Below are positions 1-38,152 of a DNA stretch of 38,152 bases, piece by piece (the first letter of the stretch is position 1; the number at the start of each line of letters is the position of its first letter). The notes beneath the pieces are model-generated. The model did no database searches, had not been told where the DNA came from, and saw only the letters and a list, made by a program, of their open reading frames with translations. The position numbers were made by a program, and so were the translations under genes. This DNA comes from a virus: UHGV virus genome UHGV-1370838. One strand, 5' to 3'.

Positions 1-25
1 AAATAATTAAAAACACAACACTTCC

Positions 26-2500
26 TTATTGCGGAGTGACATCCTGAGGTCGCCACCAGTATGTCTGGTTAAACTCTTTCTTCGAACGTTGCTCCATTTT
101 ACGCAAATAGCCTGGTGAAAAATACTCCTGCATCTGGTTAAAGATCATATGATCGAGAGCCGCCTTTAAGTACCAGAGATTCGCACCTGGCATCAAACCT
201 TTCCCCAGCTTCACCAGATCACCACCAGTCTGCTCACTCTTCCCTTCCACAGCATTTAACGGTATGCCCTGAGCAATCTTCACTACGTCATCAACCAGAC
301 CAGCTACCGGGCCAAGCATCGACGCCAGCGCGCCGCTTCCGTACCTAGTGTGATCTGACAATAAAAAGTCACCGTAAAGGCCAAGACCACCACCTTTCAG
401 TAGAGCACCAAGCCAAAATTTAGCAGCATCTTCTCCTGTCATCTCGCGAGGATTACGACCAGACGCAAGGTCGTTAAGTTGCTGCGACAAAGCGCCAAGA
501 ATGGTCGTACTGGCAATAAACGTCGCAATATATGCCGCACGCCCACCAGCAGACGGCATACCCATAGCGCGTGACCAGTGACGCATAACCACCGAGATAG
601 GGAACGATTTAAACAGGAAAACACTTCTCGTTAATTCACCTTTCCATGTTCCACGCTGAATACCAGAACCGGTTATCAGTTGCTCACGTGCTCCCGGTGT
701 AATAACAGCCATATCAACTTCTTCAGTTACGGCACCGAGCAGTTTACGCATTGCCTCAAATTTCACGCGTTCAGGCTCACCAAGATGTTTAACTGCTGAA
801 TCAGGGATACGCATAATGCTTTCCGGTGTCAGCATCGTATTATTGCCGTTCCCCCAGTCCTCCTGTTGCGCCAGCTTCCATACGCTCCAGTCTGTGTCAG
901 TAATCCCTTTGCTTTTCAGGATACGAAAATCAGAATCATCGAGGCTACGAAGGTCTGGTGTCCGTGACACTACTTCTCCCAGGCTTCCCATCATGGTTAC
1001 GCCATAGGCGCGCTTGTGCGCATCTGACCATGCTGTAAGCCCACTGGCACGCATTACCGCCGTTGCCGCCCAACGAGACACAGACGGCCCCATATTATCC
1101 ATCGCCCAGCGGTTAACGCTGCCAAGTAGAGATTCCATCGCCAGACCAGCGCGGCGCGCCCGCACAAGTTCTGTACGGTTCGTTGGGTCCATAGCTTCAA
1201 GCTGGTTGCGGAATAACTGGTTCATTGGAAGGTTGGTAACCTTCGCAGACAGATACATGGTTCCAAGATCAGAGAACGATGACAGCAACGCGGATCCGAG
1301 TCTGCTGGCAACCAGCCAGTTGCGGATATTGTCAGACCATCGCGCGATGTGCGGATTCGCTACAGGCTGTGTCTTTCCGGAAATAAAGTTGTACAGATTC
1401 TCTGTGTTGTTCGCCAGCCGCTCGACTTTACCGGTTTTACTCGGGTTAGCTGTTGCCGTTTCTGCCTTCACCTGATCAAGAAGAGAGCGGAAAACATGAT
1501 CGGGGTTTGGGCCATATGTTTCCACCAGTGCAATATCTTTACTGATACCTTCAAGGTGACCGACCATGATTTCCCATAGAGAGCGATCGCCATAAAGTTG
1601 CTGATATTGCAGATAGGAATCTGCATCTTTGAAATGTATCTGTCGTGATGCATTACCACGGTTAGCACGTGCGCCGGAAATTCGCATTCCGGTATCAGTA
1701 AGCTTATTCAGCCCACCAGTAGCGATCGTGTTATAAGCCTCTCCAAGAAATGCAGACAACTCGGCATCGTTCATCAGTTGTCCATCGGCTCGGGTATAAT
1801 ATTTGCGATCCAGCTTACCTATAACATCGCTAACCCATTTATCTTTTGATACCGCCCCAACCTTTTCCATAGAATGATGTTGAGGGATCCCCCAGTTTTC
1901 GAGATAGCCAATGTCCCCACCAGCATCATTAAACCGGCGGCGCAGCAGCTCTGTAACTTCTCTCCACGCCTTAGCACCTTTTCTTGCTTTAGCATTGCCA
2001 GTATTTTGCCCCCGCATTTCATATACCAGGTCACGTACGCCCGCTTCATCTTCAAACAGACCAAAAAAGCGAGGATCAACTGCTTCGAATGCCTCCTGCA
2101 ATTGACTCAATGCATAATCACGGGTGGCTTTTGTTCTGGATTCAACAGAGAGGAAATTCGATTTACCGTCTGCATTAAAAGCAATAGTACGGTTAAGAGC
2201 GCCAAGTTTCCCATCAGCCCCTTGATAGCTATTGATAAATTTATCCAATCTCTGACGTGCGGCTATAGTGAGGGCCACACGACGTTTCTTTAATGCCGCT
2301 TCTCGCTGTAATTCTTCAGATGCCAATTGTGCTGCACGATACAACCGTTCTGATTCGGAAAGTTGTCGCCACGACATCGGGTCATCACGAGCAATGGAGC
2401 GCATATTTCGATAAATGCGGTCTTCAATGTTCTGTATTTCTCGCGCCGTTAACGTGCGCTGCGCCGCCTGCTGGACCGCTTGTATACATTCCTGTCTCAT
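26..2500 (-). CDS. large internal virion / ejection protein (last gene of structural operon)
   Basis: 824-aa ORF; ATG at 2498-2500 preceded by GAGAGG SD; follows the other large virion proteins on the same strand. Confidence 0.6.
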   Translation of the reverse strand: MRQECIQAVQQAAQRTLTAREIQNIEDRIYRNMRSIARDDPMSWRQLSESERLYRAAQLASEELQREAALKKRRVALTIAARQRLDKFINSYQGADGKLGALNRTIAFNADGKSNFLSVESRTKATRDYALSQLQEAFEAVDPRFFGLFEDEAGVRDLVYEMRGQNTGNAKARKGAKAWREVTELLRRRFNDAGGDIGYLENWGIPQHHSMEKVGAVSKDKWVSDVIGKLDRKYYTRADGQLMNDAELSAFLGEAYNTIATGGLNKLTDTGMRISGARANRGNASRQIHFKDADSYLQYQQLYGDRSLWEIMVGHLEGISKDIALVETYGPNPDHVFRSLLDQVKAETATANPSKTGKVERLANNTENLYNFISGKTQPVANPHIARWSDNIRNWLVASRLGSALLSSFSDLGTMYLSAKVTNLPMNQLFRNQLEAMDPTNRTELVRARRAGLAMESLLGSVNRWAMDNMGPSVSRWAATAVMRASGLTAWSDAHKRAYGVTMMGSLGEVVSRTPDLRSLDDSDFRILKSKGITDTDWSVWKLAQQEDWGNGNNTMLTPESIMRIPDSAVKHLGEPERVKFEAMRKLLGAVTEEVDMAVITPGAREQLITGSGIQRGTWKGELTRSVFLFKSFPISVVMRHWSRAMGMPSAGGRAAYIATFIASTTILGALSQQLNDLASGRNPREMTGEDAAKFWLGALLKGGGLGLYGDFLLSDHTRYGSGALASMLGPVAGLVDDVVKIAQGIPLNAVEGKSEQTGGDLVKLGKGLMPGANLWYLKAALDHMIFNQMQEYFSPGYLRKMEQRSKKEFNQTYWWRPQDVTPQ

Positions 2501-4308: not shown

Positions 4309-6818
4309 TGCGGAATATCTCCGGAGAATCTCTGACGTTTCTGTGTCAGATTAAGAACAACGGGAGAACCATCATCTTTCAGCAGATAACCAGTACCAAG
4401 TTTCACCAGGTACTGACTATCGCCGTAACTTTGCAAACCATACTGACCAGGCGGTGTTTTTATCCCGGAGCCGACAACTTGTTCATTCCAAGCCTGATTA
4501 ACCTGCTTATCGAATTGCTCTGCAGACATTCCCCACGGCAAAAGGACATTCCCCATTCCGTTATAGTCATGCACGCCACCTGTAGCTACGTTAACAGCCT
4601 GTTTCCAGATATCAGTGTCAATTTCGCCTGATATCACGCCTTTTTTCGCCATCACACCAGCGTAATAGTCCTTTGCGATCTCGTATGCCATTGATGCCCC
4701 CTGAGCATCACCAGCAAATGCATCCTTCACCATGTCAGAAAACTCAAGGCGAAGATCAGCATCTTTAGGCATCGGAATACCTTTCGCATCATCAGTACCT
4801 TTACGAGCCGCCGCGCCAGTAAGAATTGTCTGCGCAGCGGTTTCAGGAGACACGGAAACATCCGGATTAAACCAGTTTTTTTCTGCCAAAATACCACCAG
4901 GCTTGTCCATCAGTATCCCGGCAACGGCAGCAGATGGAGCGTTGGCACTGATCTGCTGTAGTGCTGACATATACACCTGCCCACCACCAGTGCTCTGCCT
5001 GATGGTATCGAGATATGCTGCCTGTTGGGAAACTGGAGCATCACGAAAAAAAACACCGATCTGATTGGCCTCGTCTTTGGAAAAGAACGTCAGTGGAGTG
5101 CCATATGACTTAGCAAGGTCACTGACCTGAGCGGCACGCAAGGCAACGCTCTGTCCAAAGTTATCCTTATTGCTCATGTCGATAGGCTTTGCCTGTCCAG
5201 AGGCAAGAGAGAACTGCACAGGATCAGACTGCCGCTGCTTTATCACCTGATTTGCAGCCGAAACAACGTTGTCATAAAGAGCTGCGCGAGCCGCATAACC
5301 CTCCCCTGTCTCACCAGTATCCGGGCGTAATTGCTCAACATATGCTGTAATGCTGCTTGTCGGCATGTTGCGGAAAGAGCCTATATACTGTCCGGCGATC
5401 TGCGTATTCTTAAACTCGGTATATCGCAGGTTTCCTTCTCTGACTCCATAAGCTGCAATAAAATCAGCCTCACCAGGTGGGTTAGGAAATTCAACGCCAC
5501 GCATATACGCAGCCGTCGCATCGCGAACCTGGCTGTCAATCATCGTTTTATATTCAGCCTGCTGCTGCCGACGCAGTTGATCCGCCTGCCGCATAAAACT
5601 TGCCTGAGCCTCAGGAGATGCCGCATCGAATGCTGCATTACCGGTATAGCGTTTGGTGTTGGTTGGAATTGTTGATAAACCAAGTGCTGCACTGACACCA
5701 GCAGTTAACTGCTGATCACTGTATGGCTGGCTACCGTTCTCATGATGGATAATGGCTGCACAAAGCGCCTTCAGGGTATCAGGATTTGATGCATCGAGAG
5801 GCTCATCAGCAGAAACGCCAAGTTGTTCGCACACTGCTTTGATATACGACATAGTGTCATTTTTATCAGTAGGCGGTGCCCAGCGATTAATTATCTCGCT
5901 GACGGTATCAATACCCTGCCGCTGATACGACATCAGGTTCCGCCCTAATGCACGAATCCCGTGTTCAGGTGTTTCGAATTTAGCAAATCTACCATCATCA
6001 CCGGTCTGGCCTACCCACGGATTAGTTTTGCTGTATTCGAGATTTCCGGGGTTATTGTTGCGTATGCCACGGACACGCTCGGAAGAGCCACTATCTGTTA
6101 CAGCACGGCGAGCTCCAGCAGCAGTATCACTTAACTCGCCATTACTTTGGATGAATGCGGTCGCATTGTTTGCCGACCACTGGGACAATGCTGCATCAGC
6201 AACCTTCTCTTTAAACTCGATTTTCTTGGCCTGTATTTGCTCGTCGCTCCAGCCATGTGCAGCACCGTACTCCTCAATTTGCTGGAAAGTTTGCTTATTA
6301 GCCAATACGTATGCGGCATTGTCGCCATACAATGCTGCGGCATTTTTACCATTGTTCAGCAGCGTCGCCTGAAACTGACCTTCTTCGTAGGCATTAATTT
6401 GCCCTATCTCGTGCCGCCCGGCCTGCGTAGTGAACTGAATGCGCTGCTGCTGCGCCTGCTGCATGAAAGCATTACGAGCCTGTTCATCCGGCAGCGACAT
6501 AGCCAGTTGTTCGACCTGAGCATCAAACTGCTGCGTATACTCATGGCCTTTTCCAATAGCATTTTTCCCTTCCAGGTTAAGCAAACCTGTTTCAGGGTTA
6601 TTCAGCAGATCACTGCTTATCTGACTGAGGTTAAGAGATGCCTCCTGAGCCAGAGCGATATTGGCACGCTGTTTTGCCTGCCCCAAAACATCAATTGCCT
6701 CTGTCCCTGCCCGAACAAAAGCATCACCAATACCTGGCTGAGAAAACGTCTGCAAGCCTGCTGACTGAACTCCACGGCTCTCAACCTGGCGTCCGGATAC
6801 TGTTGGTACGACTGGCAT
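4305..6818 (-). CDS. internal virion protein with putative muralytic domain
   Basis: Start moved to ATG at 6816-6818 (GGAGG SD; TAATG overlap with upstream stop); contains GIRNNNPGNL motif that I recall from virion-associated peptidoglycan hydrolase domains. Confidence 0.6.
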   Translation of the reverse strand: MPVVPTVSGRQVESRGVQSAGLQTFSQPGIGDAFVRAGTEAIDVLGQAKQRANIALAQEASLNLSQISSDLLNNPETGLLNLEGKNAIGKGHEYTQQFDAQVEQLAMSLPDEQARNAFMQQAQQQRIQFTTQAGRHEIGQINAYEEGQFQATLLNNGKNAAALYGDNAAYVLANKQTFQQIEEYGAAHGWSDEQIQAKKIEFKEKVADAALSQWSANNATAFIQSNGELSDTAAGARRAVTDSGSSERVRGIRNNNPGNLEYSKTNPWVGQTGDDGRFAKFETPEHGIRALGRNLMSYQRQGIDTVSEIINRWAPPTDKNDTMSYIKAVCEQLGVSADEPLDASNPDTLKALCAAIIHHENGSQPYSDQQLTAGVSAALGLSTIPTNTKRYTGNAAFDAASPEAQASFMRQADQLRRQQQAEYKTMIDSQVRDATAAYMRGVEFPNPPGEADFIAAYGVREGNLRYTEFKNTQIAGQYIGSFRNMPTSSITAYVEQLRPDTGETGEGYAARAALYDNVVSAANQVIKQRQSDPVQFSLASGQAKPIDMSNKDNFGQSVALRAAQVSDLAKSYGTPLTFFSKDEANQIGVFFRDAPVSQQAAYLDTIRQSTGGGQVYMSALQQISANAPSAAVAGILMDKPGGILAEKNWFNPDVSVSPETAAQTILTGAAARKGTDDAKGIPMPKDADLRLEFSDMVKDAFAGDAQGASMAYEIAKDYYAGVMAKKGVISGEIDTDIWKQAVNVATGGVHDYNGMGNVLLPWGMSAEQFDKQVNQAWNEQVVGSGIKTPPGQYGLQSYGDSQYLVKLGTGYLLKDDGSPVVLNLTQKRQRFSGDIPQ

Positions 6819-7363
6819 TATAATCCTCCGGGTAATCTGGTTCCTGCTGCTGCCCCGATTGGCGCAGGGGTGCTTTGAGTAAACGGACTCCACGTCCCAC
6901 CAAACATCTGGTACGCACCGTATGCCTTCAGAGGCGCAGTGAGCAATGTTGTTGCTGCTCCCACATTCCCCTGTTTACGGGCTGAACTGGCTTCTGCTTT
7001 ATAGTTGGCAGCCTGAACCTGATAACCGTAAGCCTCGCGTTGCGCGTTATTCACCGTCGTCAGCGAATCAAGAGCGCCAAACTGGGCAGTGTCGCCAAAT
7101 ATATCCAGCGCGTTACCTGTAGATAAATCAGCGCCGGTAGCCCCCATTGTCGCTGCCTGTGTACCAAGCCGCTGTCGGGTCTCTCTGCGCCGTTGCTCAG
7201 CTTCAGCGTTACCCCTGTTTATTGCATCATTTGCCTGAGCTGTGGCTATATCTGCGTTCGCTTCTGCAACCTTCGAGGCATACTTTCCCTGTTGGTACTG
7301 GGTGTATGCCTGAATGCCACTCATGGCGAGCATTGCGCCACCAGCAATAACCGGATCGCACAT
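6818..7363 (-). CDS. virion core protein (gp14-like position)
   Basis: 181-aa ORF; ATG with GGAGAG SD; Ala/Gln-rich. Confidence 0.5.
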   Translation of the reverse strand: MCDPVIAGGAMLAMSGIQAYTQYQQGKYASKVAEANADIATAQANDAINRGNAEAEQRRRETRQRLGTQAATMGATGADLSTGNALDIFGDTAQFGALDSLTTVNNAQREAYGYQVQAANYKAEASSARKQGNVGAATTLLTAPLKAYGAYQMFGGTWSPFTQSTPAPIGAAAGTRLPGGL

Positions 7364-16401: not shown

Positions 16402-16478
16402 GTGGCATTAGCTCAGTCGGACAGAGCAACCGCCTTCTAAGCGGTTGGTCGCAGGTTCGAATCCTGCATGCCACGCCA
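16402..16478 (+). tRNA. tRNA-Arg (anticodon UCU)
   Basis: Cloverleaf folded by hand: acceptor GTGGCAT/ATGCCAC, D-stem GCTC/GAGC, anticodon stem ACCGC/GCGGT with loop CTTCTAA, T-stem GCAGG/CCTGC with TTCGAAT loop, discriminator G, encoded CCA. Confidence 0.9.
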
Positions 16479-31097: not shown

Positions 31098-31580
31098 CTA
31101 TCTGGTCAGGGTGTCGTACTGTTTTTCGCAGACTCTTCCGGCTTCGGCTGCCCGGTCAGCATACTCTGCCAGTTGTCTGTTTCTCTCGAGAGATTTGCTG
31201 AGCACGTCGGCAAGCAAAACTCCGGTATCTGCGGCTGACGACCCAGCGCCGACAATGGCGTTATAGTGCCTGAGCTGCTCACGGATGGCAACGAGCTGTT
31301 GCTGCAACCGGCCAGCGCGAGCGGCAGCATCAAGAGCATCATTGCGCGCCTGGTCGATCCTCTGCTGCGCTTCACGTTCATTGATCGATTTCTCCTGTTC
31401 GTAGTGCTGACGAACTCTCTCATCTTCGGTTTTGCGGTCTTCTTTCGCCTGTGCATACCCGGCGTCGTACTGACGACTGCCGTGCACATTCCAGGCAACA
31501 ACTCCTGATATGACCAGAACAGCAAGCACCGCCATGATAATCAACTGATTACGGTATGCTTTTACGAATGCCCAGATCAT
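31098..31580 (-). CDS. i-spanin (Rz-like)
   Basis: N-terminal TM segment then Gln/Arg/Ala-rich coiled coil; last gene of lysis cassette. Confidence 0.65.
31106..31381 (-). CDS. o-spanin (Rz1-like lipoprotein) nested in +1 frame
   Basis: Signal peptide with lipobox LAGC; Pro-rich mature part; start uncertain (31381 or 31342). Confidence 0.5.
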   Translation of the reverse strand: MNVKRSRGSTRRAMMLLMLPLALAGCSNSSLPSVSSSGTITPLSALGRQPQIPEFCLPTCSANLSRETDNWQSMLTGQPKPEESAKNSTTP

Positions 31581-32206
31581 ACGGCCAGCACCTTACTGGC
31601 AGTAACGTACCGCGCGCGCCGGTCGTCGATGCCGTTCCGGCCACCATTGATAATCAGAGTTACACGTGCAATATCTCCGGGATACTTCATGCAGCCTTTG
31701 CTGGAGAAGAACCACGCCGCGCTACGAGCCGCGTATTCGTCCTGCGTCAACAGCTCAGGATTCTCCAGCAGGTCCACTTTTAGACCGTTTCCGCAGTCAC
31801 GATAGTTATTCAAACCGGTAATCTGGATAAGCCCGCGCCCACGGTAAAACCAGCCGTCAGTCGGCCCGTTGTTCCCCATGCGCTTGCTATACACCAGATT
31901 GGCGATCGCACGCTGGCGCTCCAGCGGTAACGATGGCTCACCAGCACGACGGCCCAGCGCGTTGGCCTGGCCCTGAGTGAGGCGCCCGGCACGGACGAAT
32001 CCCGCCAGCCCAGTCACGCTGTAGTTGAAGTTCTCCTGCAGCCGGGTGAAGCCTCCAGACTCATGCCCGACCTGAGCAATAAACATTGCCTGATCTTCTG
32101 GTTTGCTGATACCAAACTCTTTCATCGCAGAAGTTATATGCGAGAACCAGCGTGCGGCCAGCGCCTCGCTAATACCAGCAGCTCGCTGGAATTGTTTAAT
32201 CTCCAT
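31577..32206 (-). CDS. endolysin, glycoside hydrolase family 19-like
   Basis: [16 protein letters not shown]-type GH19 motif; GAGG SD. Confidence 0.8.
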
Positions 32207-32504
32207 GTTTAGACCTCGTTATTTTGAAAATCTGAACGACGTTACCGCGAGTTTTAAGAACCGCAGCAAGCATGACAGCGTTGATAATGACCTCAGATAA
32301 ATCCACAGCCATTGGCGTGCGTAACCAGATTGCATAGACGACACGAACAGGAATACTGGCCGCAGCAACAATAAGGAAATAAGCAAGCCACCCTCCCCAC
32401 CTTCGATGTTGTGAACCGTTACGCCGGAATGTGACAACACGAATTGCTATGCCAGTACAAATAAGTGCATTGGTGATAAGCAAAACAAGCTCATTAGTTA
32501 CCAT
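32196..32504 (-). CDS. holin/antiholin-like membrane protein
   Basis: 102 aa with about 3 TM segments; between holin and endolysin. Confidence 0.55.
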
Positions 32505-32895
32505 CGCCTTTTCTCCCCGGAATTAACTCGCGTGGATTATCGGAACGGTGATAGAGCCAGATGCCAATTCGAACTGCAACGATTGCTGACACGAATGCAC
32601 CAGCAGAGAAAACAATCCCTTTCTCGAAAGAGTCCTGCGTGATGGTAGGGATCAGGCTGGCTATGCCGATAAGAATTGATGCTGCTGGTTTATAGAAAAG
32701 AAGTCCGCAGAGAAAGCTAAGCATCGATAAGAGTACGCGACGATGAATTGGGTACTCTACCGCAGAGGTAACAAAAATTACCGCACCAGCAAGAGCACCT
32801 AAAGCCACCTCAGGCGGTATACCAACGAACACGGACGCCAGTGCAGTCAGGCTTAACCCCTGATTTACTGACTCTGTTGTCAGCACATGCGCCAT
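32494..32895 (-). CDS. holin-like membrane protein
   Basis: ATG at 32893-32895 with GGTGG SD; multiple TM segments; first gene of lysis cassette. Confidence 0.6.
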   Translation of the reverse strand: MAHVLTTESVNQGLSLTALASVFVGIPPEVALGALAGAVIFVTSAVEYPIHRRVLLSMLSFLCGLLFYKPAASILIGIASLIPTITQDSFEKGIVFSAGAFVSAIVAVRIGIWLYHRSDNPRELIPGRKGDGN

Positions 32896-33000
32896 AGTGA
32901 CCACCGTTTATTGTGCATAAAGAACCCCCTTAGTTGGTGAGTTCATCATACACAATAAACCATATGTGGATTAATTTTGATCGGATAACTCTTAACGAAA

Positions 33001-33051: not shown

Positions 33052-34911
33052 ATGTCTTCTTTAAAATACAGAACTGATATAGGCGGACTCAGGGCTATTG
33101 CTGTCATGGCAGTTGTCCTTTATCACTTCGGAGTCAAAGGGTTTTCTGGTGGGTTTTCAGGAGTAGATATATTCTTTGTTATATCAGGGTATCTGATGAC
33201 TGGAATAATTTACACAAAGATAGAAAATGAAAACTTTTCACTGTTAGGATTTTATCTTGATAGGGCAAGAAGGATTATACCTGCTTTAACTGTAGTTTCA
33301 GTTGCTGTTCTGATAGTTGGTTACTTCATTCTTTTACCTTCTGAATATGAATACCTGGCTCAACACGTAAGAAGTAGCCTTTTATTTTTCTCAAACGTTG
33401 AGTATTACCATAGCATTGATTATTTTGATACTGCATCAAAGCAGAAATGGCTTCTTCATACATGGTCGCTTTCTGTAGAGTGGCAGTTTTACATGGTATA
33501 TCCAATCATAATGATGGTAATTGCAAAGCTATTGGGCGCTAAGCATATAAGGTATGTTGTTGCCATCCTTGCAATTATATCATTTACTGCCTCAGTGTAT
33601 CTTTCTTATAATAATCAGGGGGCTGCATTTTATCTTCTGTCAAGCAGAGCTTGGGAGATGCTGGCTGGCGGCCTTGCCTACCTTCTTCCTACTATACAAA
33701 ATTCAAAACGCACTGCTGTATTTAGATGGATTGCCATAGCCTTTGCAGTATCGGGGATAGTCTTGCTTAACAGCTTAATGAAGTGGCCTGGGTATCTTGC
33801 CTTAATACCAGTCGTTTCTACTTTCTTTGTCATTTATCTTGGATGTAAAGATAACCTGTTACTTGATAATGCATTATCTCAATGGGTTGGGAAAATTTCA
33901 TACTCGGTATATCTGGTTCACTGGCCCATAGTTGTCTATATGTCAATGAATAAGATGGATGATATGGTTTATACAGTATCAGGTGTTGCCTTATCAATTC
34001 TTATTGGTGCCGCATCATTTTATTTAATTGAAAACCCTTCAAGAAAGGCACTTTCAAAATTTAAAAACGGCAGGTCCTTGAATGAATTAACTTTAATCGT
34101 GCTACCTGTAGGTGGTGTAGTTGGTTTGTGCTTCGCTGTACTATTGCTATCTGGAATTCCATCAAGGTTTTCGTTTGTCACAATGACGTCCGAACAGCTA
34201 AAAGAACAAATGAACAGGTATTGGGTTGATGGAGACAAGCCTCACCCTGTACCGAAGACAGGTGACAAAAAAATAGTAATAATCGGTAATTCTCATGGCA
34301 TAGATCTGACTTATGCACTTACTGAAAATGGGATGAAGGGTGATATAACTTATATAAGAACTACAAACTTATGTTCAAACTTTGGTTATACACCAAACGA
34401 CATGCCCTATGTAGAAAAGTGCAAAAAAATATTCAATGACGTGATCTCATCTCCAGCCATAGCTGAAGCTAACATTATAATCCTTCATGATGATTATGGC
34501 GTTGGCGATCTGTTCGGGATGCTTTACTCTATAGGCAAAATACAGGAGAGGACTAAAGGAGAAGTTATTGTATTTGGGCCTAAGATGAAGTTTACGGCAC
34601 AGCCAATGGAAATAATTAAGTCTGCTTTTAAATCTGGCGTAAACACAGTTGATGGGATAAATAAATACTCTAAAAAGTATTATGACAATAGTAGAGTTGA
34701 AATTAACAATACGATAAAAGGCTATCTTGGTAGCAACCAGCATTCGTATAAATACATAGATACGCTTGCCGAGCAGTGCGGAAAGTCAATGAATTGTGAC
34801 ATCCTTTCTACTAAAGGTGATTATCTTTACTTTGACAATAGTCATTTCACTCTAGAAGGCTCAAGGGAGTTTGGGAAAAAATTAAAAAATGACAAGCCAT
34901 TTATTTTTTAA
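33052..34911 (+). CDS. O-antigen acetyltransferase (acyltransferase-3 membrane domain fused to SGNH-like domain, OafA/Oac-type)
   Basis: 619 aa; N-terminal GGLRAIAV...LYHF motif and about 10 TM segments; C-terminal soluble domain with GNSH; visibly AT-rich versus flanks. Confidence 0.85.
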   Translation: MSSLKYRTDIGGLRAIAVMAVVLYHFGVKGFSGGFSGVDIFFVISGYLMTGIIYTKIENENFSLLGFYLDRARRIIPALTVVSVAVLIVGYFILLPSEYEYLAQHVRSSLLFFSNVEYYHSIDYFDTASKQKWLLHTWSLSVEWQFYMVYPIIMMVIAKLLGAKHIRYVVAILAIISFTASVYLSYNNQGAAFYLLSSRAWEMLAGGLAYLLPTIQNSKRTAVFRWIAIAFAVSGIVLLNSLMKWPGYLALIPVVSTFFVIYLGCKDNLLLDNALSQWVGKISYSVYLVHWPIVVYMSMNKMDDMVYTVSGVALSILIGAASFYLIENPSRKALSKFKNGRSLNELTLIVLPVGGVVGLCFAVLLLSGIPSRFSFVTMTSEQLKEQMNRYWVDGDKPHPVPKTGDKKIVIIGNSHGIDLTYALTENGMKGDITYIRTTNLCSNFGYTPNDMPYVEKCKKIFNDVISSPAIAEANIIILHDDYGVGDLFGMLYSIGKIQERTKGEVIVFGPKMKFTAQPMEIIKSAFKSGVNTVDGINKYSKKYYDNSRVEINNTIKGYLGSNQHSYKYIDTLAEQCGKSMNCDILSTKGDYLYFDNSHFTLEGSREFGKKLKNDKPFIF

Positions 34912-34946: not shown

Positions 34947-37199
34947 TCAACCTATTTTAGTGTAAGTCCAGTTAAATGTTGCCGCGCCCTGACTTGTTAC
35001 CGCTACATTCCTTCCCGATGAAGAAAATGTTATGAATGCTCCGGCTTTTAATGGCGTTAGAGTTAATGAGCCATCATACATCGCTAGTTGTGTAGAAGAG
35101 TAGTTTGTGCCGCCGCCAGAACCCCATACACTAATGAGATACATCCCCTGCATATCAGGCAATGCAAACAATGTTGTTTCGGTGTTGGCATTTACGGATT
35201 GTGTTCCTTTTGCGGTGTAGAAACCAGGTGTCTGTAGCCCCGTTGATGATACTTGTTGAGTGTAACCGCCAGAAACAGTACCAGATATCGGGGTGCAGAA
35301 CCAGTTAACGTTACCCTGACTAACTACTGATAAAACCGGGGAGCCGCCTGCAGGCGCGCGCCAACGACCGCTGTACACGTCAATTCGGGATGTTGTGTCC
35401 TTAGCGTATAACGTAATAGGGTATCCACCAGTCCCGGAGTAAGGGATTGCGCTATCAGACAAGTCATCCTCAGAAGAATCGATTATAACCTGACTTGTCC
35501 CGGATGCCTTTATGAAAGAAACGACACCACTTGCCGCCGGGGCTACAGTTTTTAACTGATTTTGCCCTGCTGTGAGCCCGGATATTTTGCCATTAGTATT
35601 CTCAAAATGGAAAAGAGTTGCATCCCCACTACCATCTGTGGAAATTATATTTCCTTCCGCATCAAATCCCACAATGTTAACGCTGTGTGAGTTAATGAAA
35701 TGGACACCTGCTCCGCCGAATGAACCACCAGAAAGTGTAATGCTTGATTGGTCCATAGCGCAGTTGAGCATAGTTACAGACATAACGGCGCCAAATTGAT
35801 AAGGCGAGACGCATCCGGATGCGTAGCAAGTCTCCATCAAAATGGTCGTACCAAGCGCCTTAATAAAGCCGTCGTGGCAATTCCGCGCCCATACGTTTTG
35901 CAACTTAGTAAGGTAAGTTCCGGTGGCGTCGTAGAAACAGCGCCATGCACCATGTACTGTGCAGTTTTTAATCTCAGACATTTCAAGACCAGTAGTACCG
36001 GCTTCAGTGGAATAGAAATTAAATGCTATCTTCCCACCATCATCTTCAGGATTCGTTGGTGTGGTTCCTGGATCATAGAAAATATAAAGACCATCAATAA
36101 AAATCTGAATCATTTTTGTCGATAGGGAATCACCTTGATCTAAAGCAAAGGCTGATATATTCCCAACAATTGACATGAAAGACTGAGAACGGTTTATTGC
36201 ATCAGTCCCTTCACCAACAATTCTGACTGAATTATTAAATATAATTGTGGCATTATAATATCCAAGACCTTTTGGGATTAGCACCTTTTTACCAGTATTA
36301 CATGCGGCCTGCAGCGCCGCATAATCCAACGATTGCGTGAGAGACGTAACAAATGGATATACCATCTGAGCAGCTGATAGTGTTGAAAATATCTCGCTTA
36401 AAGGGTGAAGCGTTCCGTCAATTGTCGCTCCAAAATCAACAACACTAATGGCTTGTGCATTTTTTATATGCTGCGAAAGAGAAATTGCCCCCTGGTAAGG
36501 CTGCTTCACTGTTATCAGCGCATCACCTTTCCCGTCAGCGCTGCTGGCCAACTGGTTGAATACGTCCGCCGCCGTTCCTGAAGGCACAGGGAAAGGAACA
36601 GGCTTCCCGTTTTGAATGCCGATAATGCTGCCTTCAAGCTGAGCGAGTGGTGGCAGCGGATCGATATAAGCGTCAGGAACTCGGATGGTATGGTTGATGT
36701 TCGATAAAGCCGTGCTGTCCACATAATTCTTTGTGGCTGCATCCTGCGGGTTAACCGGGTCTTTCAGGTTCCGAATATAGTTGTTCAGCGCGTTATAATA
36801 ATTTGCTACGAATGACGGCTTGCGCAGCGCCAAGCTAAACCAACTTCGAACCTGCTGGATCAGCATCGTTAGCTTATCAAAAGCATCCTCATGCACTTCT
36901 GCAAAGAACTTACCCTGATTACGCAAATCAGTTTCCTGCGTAACCGGGAGGTCTCGTGATATAGAAATCTGATAACCGTTAGCTAACGCCTTCGACAGAA
37001 TTACATTACCGCCATTATATCCACCAGCCCCAGTGACAGTGTAATCAGTATCAAGAGCCAGCACAGCGATATTTTCGTCAAGGTCAACCACCTGTACTAC
37101 CAGATCAGATTCCTTGAAAACCCTAAAGGTATACGGAAATGATGTCGTAACGCCGTTACCTGTGTATTCGTTGTGGTCAACTTCGGTTGAGACCGTCAT
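34947..37199 (-). CDS. tailspike / tail fibre protein
   Basis: 750 aa; N-terminal particle-binding-type domain; Gly/Ser/Thr-rich beta-helix-like body; GGAG SD. Confidence 0.8.
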   Translation of the reverse strand: MTVSTEVDHNEYTGNGVTTSFPYTFRVFKESDLVVQVVDLDENIAVLALDTDYTVTGAGGYNGGNVILSKALANGYQISISRDLPVTQETDLRNQGKFFAEVHEDAFDKLTMLIQQVRSWFSLALRKPSFVANYYNALNNYIRNLKDPVNPQDAATKNYVDSTALSNINHTIRVPDAYIDPLPPLAQLEGSIIGIQNGKPVPFPVPSGTAADVFNQLASSADGKGDALITVKQPYQGAISLSQHIKNAQAISVVDFGATIDGTLHPLSEIFSTLSAAQMVYPFVTSLTQSLDYAALQAACNTGKKVLIPKGLGYYNATIIFNNSVRIVGEGTDAINRSQSFMSIVGNISAFALDQGDSLSTKMIQIFIDGLYIFYDPGTTPTNPEDDGGKIAFNFYSTEAGTTGLEMSEIKNCTVHGAWRCFYDATGTYLTKLQNVWARNCHDGFIKALGTTILMETCYASGCVSPYQFGAVMSVTMLNCAMDQSSITLSGGSFGGAGVHFINSHSVNIVGFDAEGNIISTDGSGDATLFHFENTNGKISGLTAGQNQLKTVAPAASGVVSFIKASGTSQVIIDSSEDDLSDSAIPYSGTGGYPITLYAKDTTSRIDVYSGRWRAPAGGSPVLSVVSQGNVNWFCTPISGTVSGGYTQQVSSTGLQTPGFYTAKGTQSVNANTETTLFALPDMQGMYLISVWGSGGGTNYSSTQLAMYDGSLTLTPLKAGAFITFSSSGRNVAVTSQGAATFNWTYTKIG

Positions 37200-37355: not shown

Positions 37356-37375
37356 TACTGTATAAATATACAGTT
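37356..37375 (+). promoter_or_regulatory. LexA (SOS) box TACTGTATAAATATACAGTT
   Basis: CTGT-N8-ACAG with AT-rich spacer, perfect dyad; immediately upstream of 37381/37396 ORF. Confidence 0.75.
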
Positions 37376-37395
37376 ATTGCATGGAGAAGATTAAG

Positions 37396-37653
37396 ATGCA
37401 GCAGTATCACTATCCACTGGAAGACGGATTTACCGAAAGGATTCACACGCCGGGAGGCGTCAGGTCACTGGTGGAGGGATCGCACTTGATGAAATTACTC
37501 CGGGATCTCGATAAGGATGGATTTAATGTCGATGGCCCACTTGCCGAACTGACTGCACTGATTAACTACGTCACCAGCTCACAGATGTCTATGCGGGATC
37601 TGCAAACACATCTCGACTATTGTGCCGAACAATTACGAAAACAAACCCGGTAA
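37396..37653 (+). CDS. SOS-regulated small protein, candidate antirepressor
   Basis: ATG at 37396 has GGAG SD (37381 ATG lacks one); 85-90 aa; LexA box overlaps its promoter. Confidence 0.5.
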   Translation: MQQYHYPLEDGFTERIHTPGGVRSLVEGSHLMKLLRDLDKDGFNVDGPLAELTALINYVTSSQMSMRDLQTHLDYCAEQLRKQTR

Positions 37654-37677
37654 ATTTAAAGGCCGCAAGAGCGGCCT

Positions 37678-37689
37678 GTGACATGTCAC
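37678..37689. repeat. perfect 12-bp palindrome GTGACATGTCAC (copy 3 of 3)
   Basis: 25 bp after stop of 37381-37653; preceded by hairpin GGCCGC-AAGA-GCGGCC. Confidence 0.8.
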
Positions 37690-37982
37690 GCTCTTTTTCT
37701 GAATGATAGCCATTCGAAAAATGATGACATTCCACCGCAGACAATAGCAAAGATGATCCCACCAAAGAAGAGAAGGCCAGCCTGCCACCACTCCCACCGC
37801 CATACATCCACAGCGCCAACCATACCAACAATCGCTCCAACAAATGGAATATAGCTCACGATGAAAGCAATGGGGGCTGCAATTATCCAGTGCAATCCCC
37901 ACCATGATTCAAGCCCAGCCATAATTGCTGCCAACTGAAAAAGACCAACGACGATATAAACAATGAATCCTATAGCTTGCAT
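37686..37982 (-). CDS. small Trp-rich integral membrane protein
   Basis: 98 aa; about 3 TM segments; AGGTGA SD. Confidence 0.55.
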   Translation of the reverse strand: MQAIGFIVYIVVGLFQLAAIMAGLESWWGLHWIIAAPIAFIVSYIPFVGAIVGMVGAVDVWRWEWWQAGLLFFGGIIFAIVCGGMSSFFEWLSFRKRA

Positions 37983-37993
37983 GTAGTCACCTA

Positions 37994-38152
37994 TTTACCC
38001 AGTAAAAATCAGAGGCCTCCCCTCAATAAGGCTTGCAACAAGAACTATTCCCTGCACAACAAAGATGAACCAGCAAATAGCTTGAGTCTGAGGGTTAAGA
38101 AAATATTTGTAGCGGTCAATAAATAACAACCCACCAGAAATTATCACACTCA
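37994..38152 (-). CDS. partial hydrophobic ORF running off the right edge
   Basis: Open minus-strand frame ending ...LIEGRPLIFTG; start lies outside the window. Confidence 0.3.

Follow-up and report, generated by a model that had tools for sequence, protein, structure and literature searches.

p57 and p98, two small membrane proteins encoded behind the internal-virion operon of a Uetakevirus prophage: an undescribed protein family with a possible role in superinfection exclusion

In the UHGV virus genome UHGV-1370838, a stretch of 38,152 nucleotides (nt) that was analysed whole and is called the window below, we identified two adjacent minus-strand genes, p57 and p98, which encode predicted membrane proteins of 57 and 98 amino acids (aa) with two and three transmembrane (TM) helices, respectively. 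The window is a Uetakevirus, a phiV10/epsilon15-like temperate podophage (prophage) of Escherichia coli, and the two genes stand directly behind the gene of its last internal-virion protein, an 824-aa protein equivalent to phiV10 p20 and epsilon15 gp17 (99% identity to the former, 28% to the latter). p57 and p98 are real, selected genes. To judge from family searches, they belong to no described family and p98 defines an undescribed one, which is widespread in temperate and integrative elements and which adjoins a hypervariable gene position. By analogy with known phage proteins, p57 and p98 might be superinfection-exclusion-like accessory membrane proteins, a tentative reading to which we give a probability of about 0.35.

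Results

Two selected genes at the joined ends of the window

The two genes and their translation signals are the following.

37686..37982, minus strand: p98 (WP_001147905; phrog_3075), a 98-aa, three-TM, Trp-rich predicted inner-membrane protein
37987..37992, minus strand: Shine-Dalgarno sequence of p98, AGGTGA, 4 nt ahead of the ATG, read from the sequence
complement(join(37995..38152,1..16)), minus strand: p57, a 57-aa, two-TM protein, a complete open reading frame (ORF) once the window ends are joined
37995..38152, minus strand: 3' part of p57, codons 6-57 and the stop codon
1..16, minus strand: 5' part of p57, with its GTG start at 14-16, reached via the joined window ends
21..27, minus strand: Shine-Dalgarno sequence of p57, AAGGAAG, overlapping the TAA stop codon (26-28) of the 824-aa gene, read from the sequence

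The end of the window, at 38152, joins its start at 1 exactly as in phage phiv142-3, and the junction is contiguous in the chromosome of E. coli FT130, where window positions 37655-38152 are matched at 100% identity. Since the junction is seen intact in both, the window is a prophage sequence in circular permutation, and its ends mark an arbitrary point of the circle. An earlier note on this DNA had reported, beside a 98-aa three-TM protein, a partial hydrophobic ORF on the minus strand; this ORF is real and lies on that strand, but it is not partial, as it is complete, with 57 aa (MFLIILSVIISGGLLFIDRYKYFLNPQTQAICWFIFVVQGIVLVASLIEGRPLIFTG), after the window ends are joined. By hydropathy, p57 is a hairpin of two helices, and the loop between them is short and basic. 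Its GC content (37.4%) deviates clearly from that of the genome (49.2%), and its ratio of non-synonymous to synonymous substitution rates (dN/dS), calculated on diverged homologues by the Nei-Gojobori method, is 0.17-0.25 at dS 0.56-0.72. The gene is unannotated by the Prokaryotic Genome Annotation Pipeline (PGAP; E. coli FT130), in RefSeq and in the GenBank records of phiv142-3 and BUCT711, the latter a Klebsiella phage in which the p57 and p98 ORFs are both intact. The p57 of YDC107_2 carries a 1-nt insertion or frameshift. A weak terminator-like hairpin followed by a T-run is present at 38011-38032 (minus strand), inside the 3' end of p57 and just upstream of p98, and is found in phiv142-3 too; it could attenuate read-through into p98 or be there by chance.

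The p98 protein (MQAIGFIVYIVVGLFQLAAIMAGLESWWGLHWIIAAPIAFIVSYIPFVGAIVGMVGAVDVWRWEWWQAGLLFFGGIIFAIVCGGMSSFFEWLSFRKRA) is labelled 'hypothetical protein' by PGAP, and its gene has a GC content (46.1%) that deviates marginally from that of the genome. In phiv142-3, a 1-nt intergenic insertion leads to the annotation of Orf12 (p98) with an extension to 118 aa. The three TM helices announced by the earlier note are found for the ORF at 37686..37982 both by hydropathy and in an AlphaFold (AF2) model built with 29 homologues (predicted local distance difference test score 91.7), which places helices at residues 2-28, 32-42/46-59 and 65-97, with a kink at the invariant Pro46. The topology prediction that the same note had called for gives an outside N-terminus and an inside C-terminus (N-out/C-in) for these three helices by the positive-inside rule, C-termini being basic throughout the family. 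The description of both proteins as Trp-rich is correct for p98, with eight Trp in 98 residues (8.2%, versus 2.3% in the gp17-like neighbour and 0.9% in the tailspike), but not for p57, which has only one. The grand average of hydropathy (GRAVY) of p98 is 1.22. Close and distant members of its family share a signature composed of G13, Q16, A19, G23, Y44-I45-P46, G49xxxG53xxG56-A57, W61xW63 and A68xxL71F72, that is, a polar Gln in the first TM helix, a glycine zipper in the second, and a Trp belt (WxWxWWQA) ahead of the third; Q16, P46, the zipper and the belt are invariant. p98 is under very strong purifying selection, with a dN/dS of about 0.02 at dS 1.6-2.3 calculated in the same way as for p57: diverged copies differ from it by 44-47 synonymous and only 6-12 non-synonymous changes.

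Family searches and distribution

The only family matched by p98 is PHROG phrog_3075, of unknown function, which it matches over its full length (its residues 1-97 align with positions 1-97 of the 98-position profile at E 2.2e-54); p57 has no match in PHROGs. Pfam and NCBIfam scans of p57 and p98 returned nothing significant. Against Pfam Phage_holin_5_2 (Hol44), p98 scores 15.2 bits for a gathering cut-off of 29.2 (E 0.027), and a Pfam scan of 29 family members gave sub-threshold matches only (DUF4112, DUF4134 and Hol44), with a weak Hol44 match in four of the 29. Alignment of the p98 family by hhalign with P22 SieA, epsilon15 gp22 and gp18, phiV10 p21 and the two holin-type proteins of the window gave probabilities of 2% or less in all cases; for epsilon15 gp22 the value was 0.5%, with no BLASTP match and no match of p57 or p98 to phrog_32492. 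Foldseek comparison of the p98 model with PDB and BFVD returned nothing at E < 4, and the K+-channel pore matches seen there were rejected as noise. In the literature, no paper names WP_001147905, phrog_3075, DUF6804 (see below) or QGF19618, and the paper on phiv142-3 leaves orf12 undiscussed.

In a collection of 5.8 billion proteins, clustering at 90% identity yields 52 p98 clusters, with members in E. coli, Klebsiella, Cronobacter, Salmonella, Yersinia, Dickeya and Kosakonia. Among 50,697 phage records it is present in seven, all of them Uetakevirus-like phages of E. coli or Klebsiella, and no homologue was found in the virulent podophages of this set. Of 5,426 complete E. coli genomes, 217 carry the p57-p98 DNA. 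When 1.84 billion representatives were searched with a profile, the family grew to 749 clusters at E <=1e-3 and 320 at E <=1e-10 (counted at 50% identity), spanning Alpha- and Deltaproteobacteria and other groups. Most members stand alone, with 90-110 aa, and some are fused to DUF805, RDD or MORN modules. Distant members in Microvirga, an alphaproteobacterial metagenome-assembled genome, Desulfovibrio, Mailhella and Buttiauxella have no virion genes adjoining. Several distant relatives have a gene for a large serine recombinase, tyrosine integrase genes or a phage AAA_24 gene at a distance of a few kb, and the Buttiauxella relative is chromosomal, between umuC and a yejM-like gene. Three p98-family genes from outside the enterobacteria are followed by a gene for a small DUF6804 membrane protein (locus L015, 8308-8646; locus L017, 8304-8594; locus L113, 3465-3767 on the reverse strand), which suggests that the two form a conserved two-gene membrane module. 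DUF805, RDD, MORN and DUF6804 are themselves uncharacterised and gave no functional lead. All occurrences of the family were in temperate phages, integrative elements or chromosomes. We conclude that the p98 family is mainly cargo of temperate or integrative elements and not a virion component.

A hypervariable position behind the internal-virion operon

In 88 of 96 distinct contexts, a large internal-virion-type ORF ends at most 1 kb upstream of p98. These ORFs are of at least seven sequence types (824, 848, 925, 921, 833, 937 and 1129 aa); five types were compared with the 824-aa protein of the window and show 24-28% identity to it, while p98 in the same places is 54-94% identical. The conservation of p98 despite the divergence of gp17 points, on these sequence comparisons, to a conserved constraint of host-side or self-assembly nature. 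The space that separates the large gene from p98 is either empty or taken up by one of at least eight unrelated genes for small proteins of membrane or secreted type. In 62 contexts the insert is p57; the others are a signal-peptide protein of 123 aa, a two-TM protein of 103 aa (phrog_21905), and ORFs of 112, 204, 176, 66 and 63 aa. At individual loci the insert is a 54-aa two-TM protein or a 102-aa signal-peptide protein, and in Cronobacter prophages and a Salmonella T7-like prophage p98 lies directly behind the large gene. The earlier note had proposed a search for neighbourhood conservation among homologues; the adjacency to a large internal-virion-type ORF is indeed conserved, but the insert between the two is hypervariable and the distant members lie away from virion genes.

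Sister phages show the same exchange. phiV10 and PAS61 have a gp17 homologue of 99% identity and no p98, with an unrelated 46-aa two-TM gene instead, and phiV10 has antirepressor genes as well. epsilon15 also lacks p98 and has an unrelated 64-aa two-TM gene, gp18, overlapping gp17 by 4 nt. The replacement in phiV10 of the segment downstream of a near-identical gp17 corresponds to the presence or replacement expected of a moron, and the unit formed by p98 and its terminator moves as one within the variable segment. Since contents are swapped among sister phages and relatives, the interval bounded by the stop codons of the last internal-virion gene and of the LexA-controlled gene on the far side is a recombination-prone accessory segment. 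In general, this variable segment is a place where accessory cargo lands.

Operon arrangement and neighbouring genes

The genes and signals that surround p57 and p98 are the following.

26..2500, minus strand: gene of the 824-aa last internal-virion/ejection-type protein (phrog_684, 'virion structural protein'), directly upstream of p57
6818-7363: T7 gp14-like gene, further upstream of the 824-aa gene
37358..37653, plus strand: LexA box and convergent 90-aa gene (85 aa in PGAP), epsilon15 gp19-like, which bounds the variable segment on the far side
37660..37677, no strand assigned: GC-rich hairpin AGGCCGCTCTTGCGGCCT, flanked by p98 and the 90-aa gene, which converge on it

Across the join, the minus-strand order is the T7 gp14-like internal virion gene, the virion genes for the 862-aa, 600-aa and 824-aa proteins, p57, p98 and the terminator; beyond the terminator come the convergent 90-aa gene, the tailspike gene (34947-37199), the convergent 619-aa acyltransferase gene and the lysis cassette. 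p57 and p98 run in the same direction as the virion operon, with spacers of 9 nt between the 824-aa gene and p57 and of 12 nt between p57 and p98, and a consensus scan of the coding strand upstream of the two genes found no sigma-70-like promoter. Their expression would come from late-operon transcription, possibly with a weak undetected promoter in the lysogen. The hairpin at 37660..37677 is likely the terminator of the virion operon and accompanies p98 in phiv142-3 and BUCT711.

The location given by the earlier note, between a LexA-regulated gene and a large virion-protein gene, agrees with these data, as the pair is flanked by the 90-aa gene with its LexA box and by the 824-aa gene. The note was also right in keeping the pair apart from the lysis cassette, which lies at about 31098-32904, some 5 kb from p98, and comprises two holin-family proteins, an endolysin and a spanin. 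The LexA box ahead of the 90-aa gene is perfect (CTGTATAAATATACAG at 37358-37373), and the 90-aa protein is a homologue of epsilon15 gp19 and phiV10 p24. Its C-terminal half weakly matches the C-terminus of the antirepressor PHROG phrog_1760 (E 5.5e-07). Judged by sequence, the gene may encode a small SOS-controlled antirepressor of the Tum/Gifsy type.

In the equivalent segment of Cronobacter prophages (loci L007-L009, 8362-8820), a HicA toxin/DUF1902 (HicB-like) pair and a Bro-N antirepressor lie between p98 and the tailspike. The gene of the 619-aa acyltransferase (33052-34911, plus strand), a probable O-antigen acetylase, has a GC content of 37% versus 49% for the genome; phiV10 Oac, with 338 aa, is a much shorter protein, and the gene of a similar 'O-antigen acetylase' of 618 aa stands in the opposite orientation in PAS61. 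Relatives have swapped the conversion module: Cronobacter carries Gtr genes, and no such module was seen in BUCT711. Elsewhere in the window, a tRNA-Arg gene (anticodon TCT) is present at 16402-16478 on the plus strand, flanked by minus-strand genes.

Discussion

Function of p57 and p98

We propose, as a tentative reading by analogy, that p57 and p98 take part in superinfection exclusion. Both proteins would insert in the cytoplasmic membrane of the lysogen or of the infected cell and would hinder a conserved step at the envelope on which incoming phages depend, most likely the passage of DNA, or of the ejection-protein conduit, through the inner membrane; p98 would be the constant element, and its variable partner may tune specificity. 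This proposal is supported by the accessory character of the two genes, by a position like that of sieA (the interval from the last internal-virion gene to the tailspike corresponds to the interval in which P22 carries sieA), by the restriction of p98 to temperate elements and by the hypervariable position that it adjoins. The idea of an accessory membrane protein, which the earlier note had put forward as superinfection exclusion, thus survives owing to the replaceable segment, the temperate restriction and the hypervariable neighbour; it does so as an analogy, with no homology to SieA.

Several points weigh against an exclusion function. sieA is on the opposite strand, has its own promoter and is expressed from the prophage, whereas p57 and p98 share the direction of the late operon and the scan detected no promoter for them, so that their expression in the lysogen is putative. 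In the PADLOC-DB collection of defence hidden Markov models, no family was matched by p98, p57 or the 90-aa protein at E values up to 1, and alignment of the p98 family with P22 SieA by hhalign gave a probability of 0.2%. The extreme conservation of p98 is unusual for a protein engaged in an arms race, and suggests contact with something conserved, either a host component or p98 itself, rather than with fast-evolving phage proteins. Finally, the chromosomal non-phage relatives and the fusions to DUF805, RDD and MORN modules suggest a more general membrane role.

A more elaborate form of the exclusion proposal, which we regard as quite unlikely, would make p98 the constant membrane subunit of a module for exclusion or defence that has two parts and has so far gone unrecognised. 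Temperate podophages and other integrative elements would carry this module, and it would stand directly behind the genes of the ejection proteins. Among the swappable partners that give it specificity would be p57 and the 103-aa two-TM and 123-aa secreted proteins and, outside the enterobacteria, DUF6804 proteins.

The co-orientation of p57 and p98 with the late operon is also what would be expected if they acted late in the lytic cycle and not in lysogenic conversion, either in lysis timing, in the manner of a holin or antiholin, or by shielding the infected cell from secondary adsorption or injection. The short spacers (reduced to a 1-nt gap in Cronobacter, and with the 4-nt overlap of gp18 and gp17 as a counterpart in epsilon15), the lack of a detected promoter of their own and the presence of a terminator only after p98 all agree with such a late role, as does the shape of p98, which with its three TM helices, predicted N-out/C-in topology and basic C-terminal tail is that of a class I holin. 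Nevertheless, the Phage_holin_5_2 match (E 0.027) is well under the gathering score and concerns few family members, the phage has a full lysis cassette elsewhere, the virulent podophages among the phage records lack p98, and relatives adjoin integrase genes in elements that are not phage-like, so that on balance we find a late lytic function unlikely. A third holin in particular was rejected, given the weak score, the complete lysis cassette elsewhere and the fact that p98 is not beside the endolysin and spanin genes.

The breadth of the family (749 clusters, in Alpha- and Deltaproteobacteria and other groups), its recurrent pairing with DUF6804 and its fusions would be accounted for if p98 were a general membrane cargo or fitness gene with no link to phage exclusion, kept by mobile elements for a benefit to the host. 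It could, for example, form a small channel, act in membrane stress or give immunity-like protection from membrane-active toxins. The very low dN/dS and the glycine zipper would fit a self-assembling membrane unit. This explanation, which is doubtful in our opinion, leaves aside why p98 is always found directly behind the last internal-virion gene in at least seven divergent podophage lineages, beside a hypervariable site, and p98 shows no similarity to a known channel or immunity family. An analogue of the immunity proteins against pore-forming colicins was rejected, as the analogy is one of shape, with no Pfam match.

The strict adjacency of p98 to the last internal-virion gene in many lineages, with apparent translational coupling, could mean that it belongs to the DNA-ejection apparatus or assists internal-virion assembly. 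We hold this to be very unlikely: p57 and p98 are hydrophobic throughout (GRAVY 1.2-1.35) and hard to fit in a lipid-free capsid, p98 is absent from phiV10, PAS61 and epsilon15 despite their homologous virion modules and from the virulent podophages of the collection, its divergence does not follow that of gp17, and some of its relatives lie outside phages. A role as a virion component was rejected on its hydrophobicity, its absence from sister phages and its non-phage relatives.

The proposal of the earlier note that these proteins inhibit the O-antigen polymerase finds little support. Wzy is serotype-specific, and the near-invariance of p98 across serotype contexts is therefore unexpected for a Wzy inhibitor: p98 is 89-100% identical across differing tailspikes, hosts (E. 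coli and Klebsiella) and conversion modules (acyltransferase, GtrA/B with a glucosyltransferase, or none). That p57 and p98 are polymerase or chain-length inhibitors, or seroconversion factors comparable to gp22 of epsilon15 and Iap of Pseudomonas D3, is highly improbable, even though they are small membrane proteins of a seroconverting genus encoded near tailspike and acyltransferase genes and epsilon15 does encode a 66-aa two-TM alpha-polymerase inhibitor (PMC7380047), since they have no similarity to gp22, gp22 lies beside a phage wzy-like gene across the tailspike and none was seen here in a Pfam scan that covered part of the window ORFs, the 619-aa acyltransferase being the sole conversion-type gene seen, and relatives occur in bacteria and elements unlinked to O-antigen.

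If the favoured proposal of superinfection exclusion is true, and p98 blocks genome entry with or without a partner, it would be a second and unrelated solution to the task of P22 SieA. Since p98 is found in about 4% of the complete E. coli genomes and in prophages of Klebsiella, Cronobacter and Salmonella, it would then bear on the host range of therapeutic or typing phages, for example phiV10 reporters. Without an exclusion phenotype, p57 and p98 are ordinary hypothetical phage membrane proteins. Whatever their function, this work describes a widespread and highly conserved family of small membrane proteins that had not been described, a hypervariable gene position that ends the internal-virion operon of temperate podophages, and a conserved 57-aa gene that annotation pipelines have overlooked. 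What is new here is the p98 family; the mechanism is not shown to be new.

Comparison with known systems

P22 SieA, a three-TM inner-membrane protein, blocks DNA delivery, and mutations that escape it lie in the ejection proteins gp16 and gp20 (PMC10883804). Like p98, it is predicted to have three TM helices and comes from a temperate O-antigen-specific podophage, and its gene occupies the variable interval that separates the last ejection-protein gene from that of the tailspike, beside antirepressor-type genes (PMC10883804). It differs from p98 by its length (162-164 aa versus 98 aa) and shows no sequence relationship to it; on inspection, its cytoplasmic motif FxRYPxEAxxFNK is absent from both p98 and p57. 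The likeness of p57 and p98 to SieA is positional and architectural only.

epsilon15 gp22 and Pseudomonas D3 Iap are, like p57 and p98, very small membrane proteins of seroconverting phages, and epsilon15 is in the same genus as the window (PMC7380047). However, gp22 adjoins gp21, a wzy-like protein of the O-antigen ligase family with 10 TM helices, on the other side of the tailspike, and its sequence is unrelated to those of p57 and p98. The positional equivalents of p57 are epsilon15 gp18 (64 aa) and phiV10 p21 (46 aa), two-TM proteins encoded after the last internal-virion gene and before the operon terminator; they have no detectable similarity to p57 or p98.

Class I holins and Phage_holin_5_2 share with p98 a length of about 100 aa, three TM helices, a predicted N-out/C-in topology and a short basic C-terminus, but p98 is under the Pfam threshold and no endolysin gene adjoins it. 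HK97 gp15 and T4 Imm are small inner-membrane proteins encoded within or beside virion or tail modules, and they block the entry of superinfecting genomes. They are likened here to p57 and p98 by description. For HK97 gp15, the literature speaks of an exclusion protein encoded by a moron (PMC10883804).

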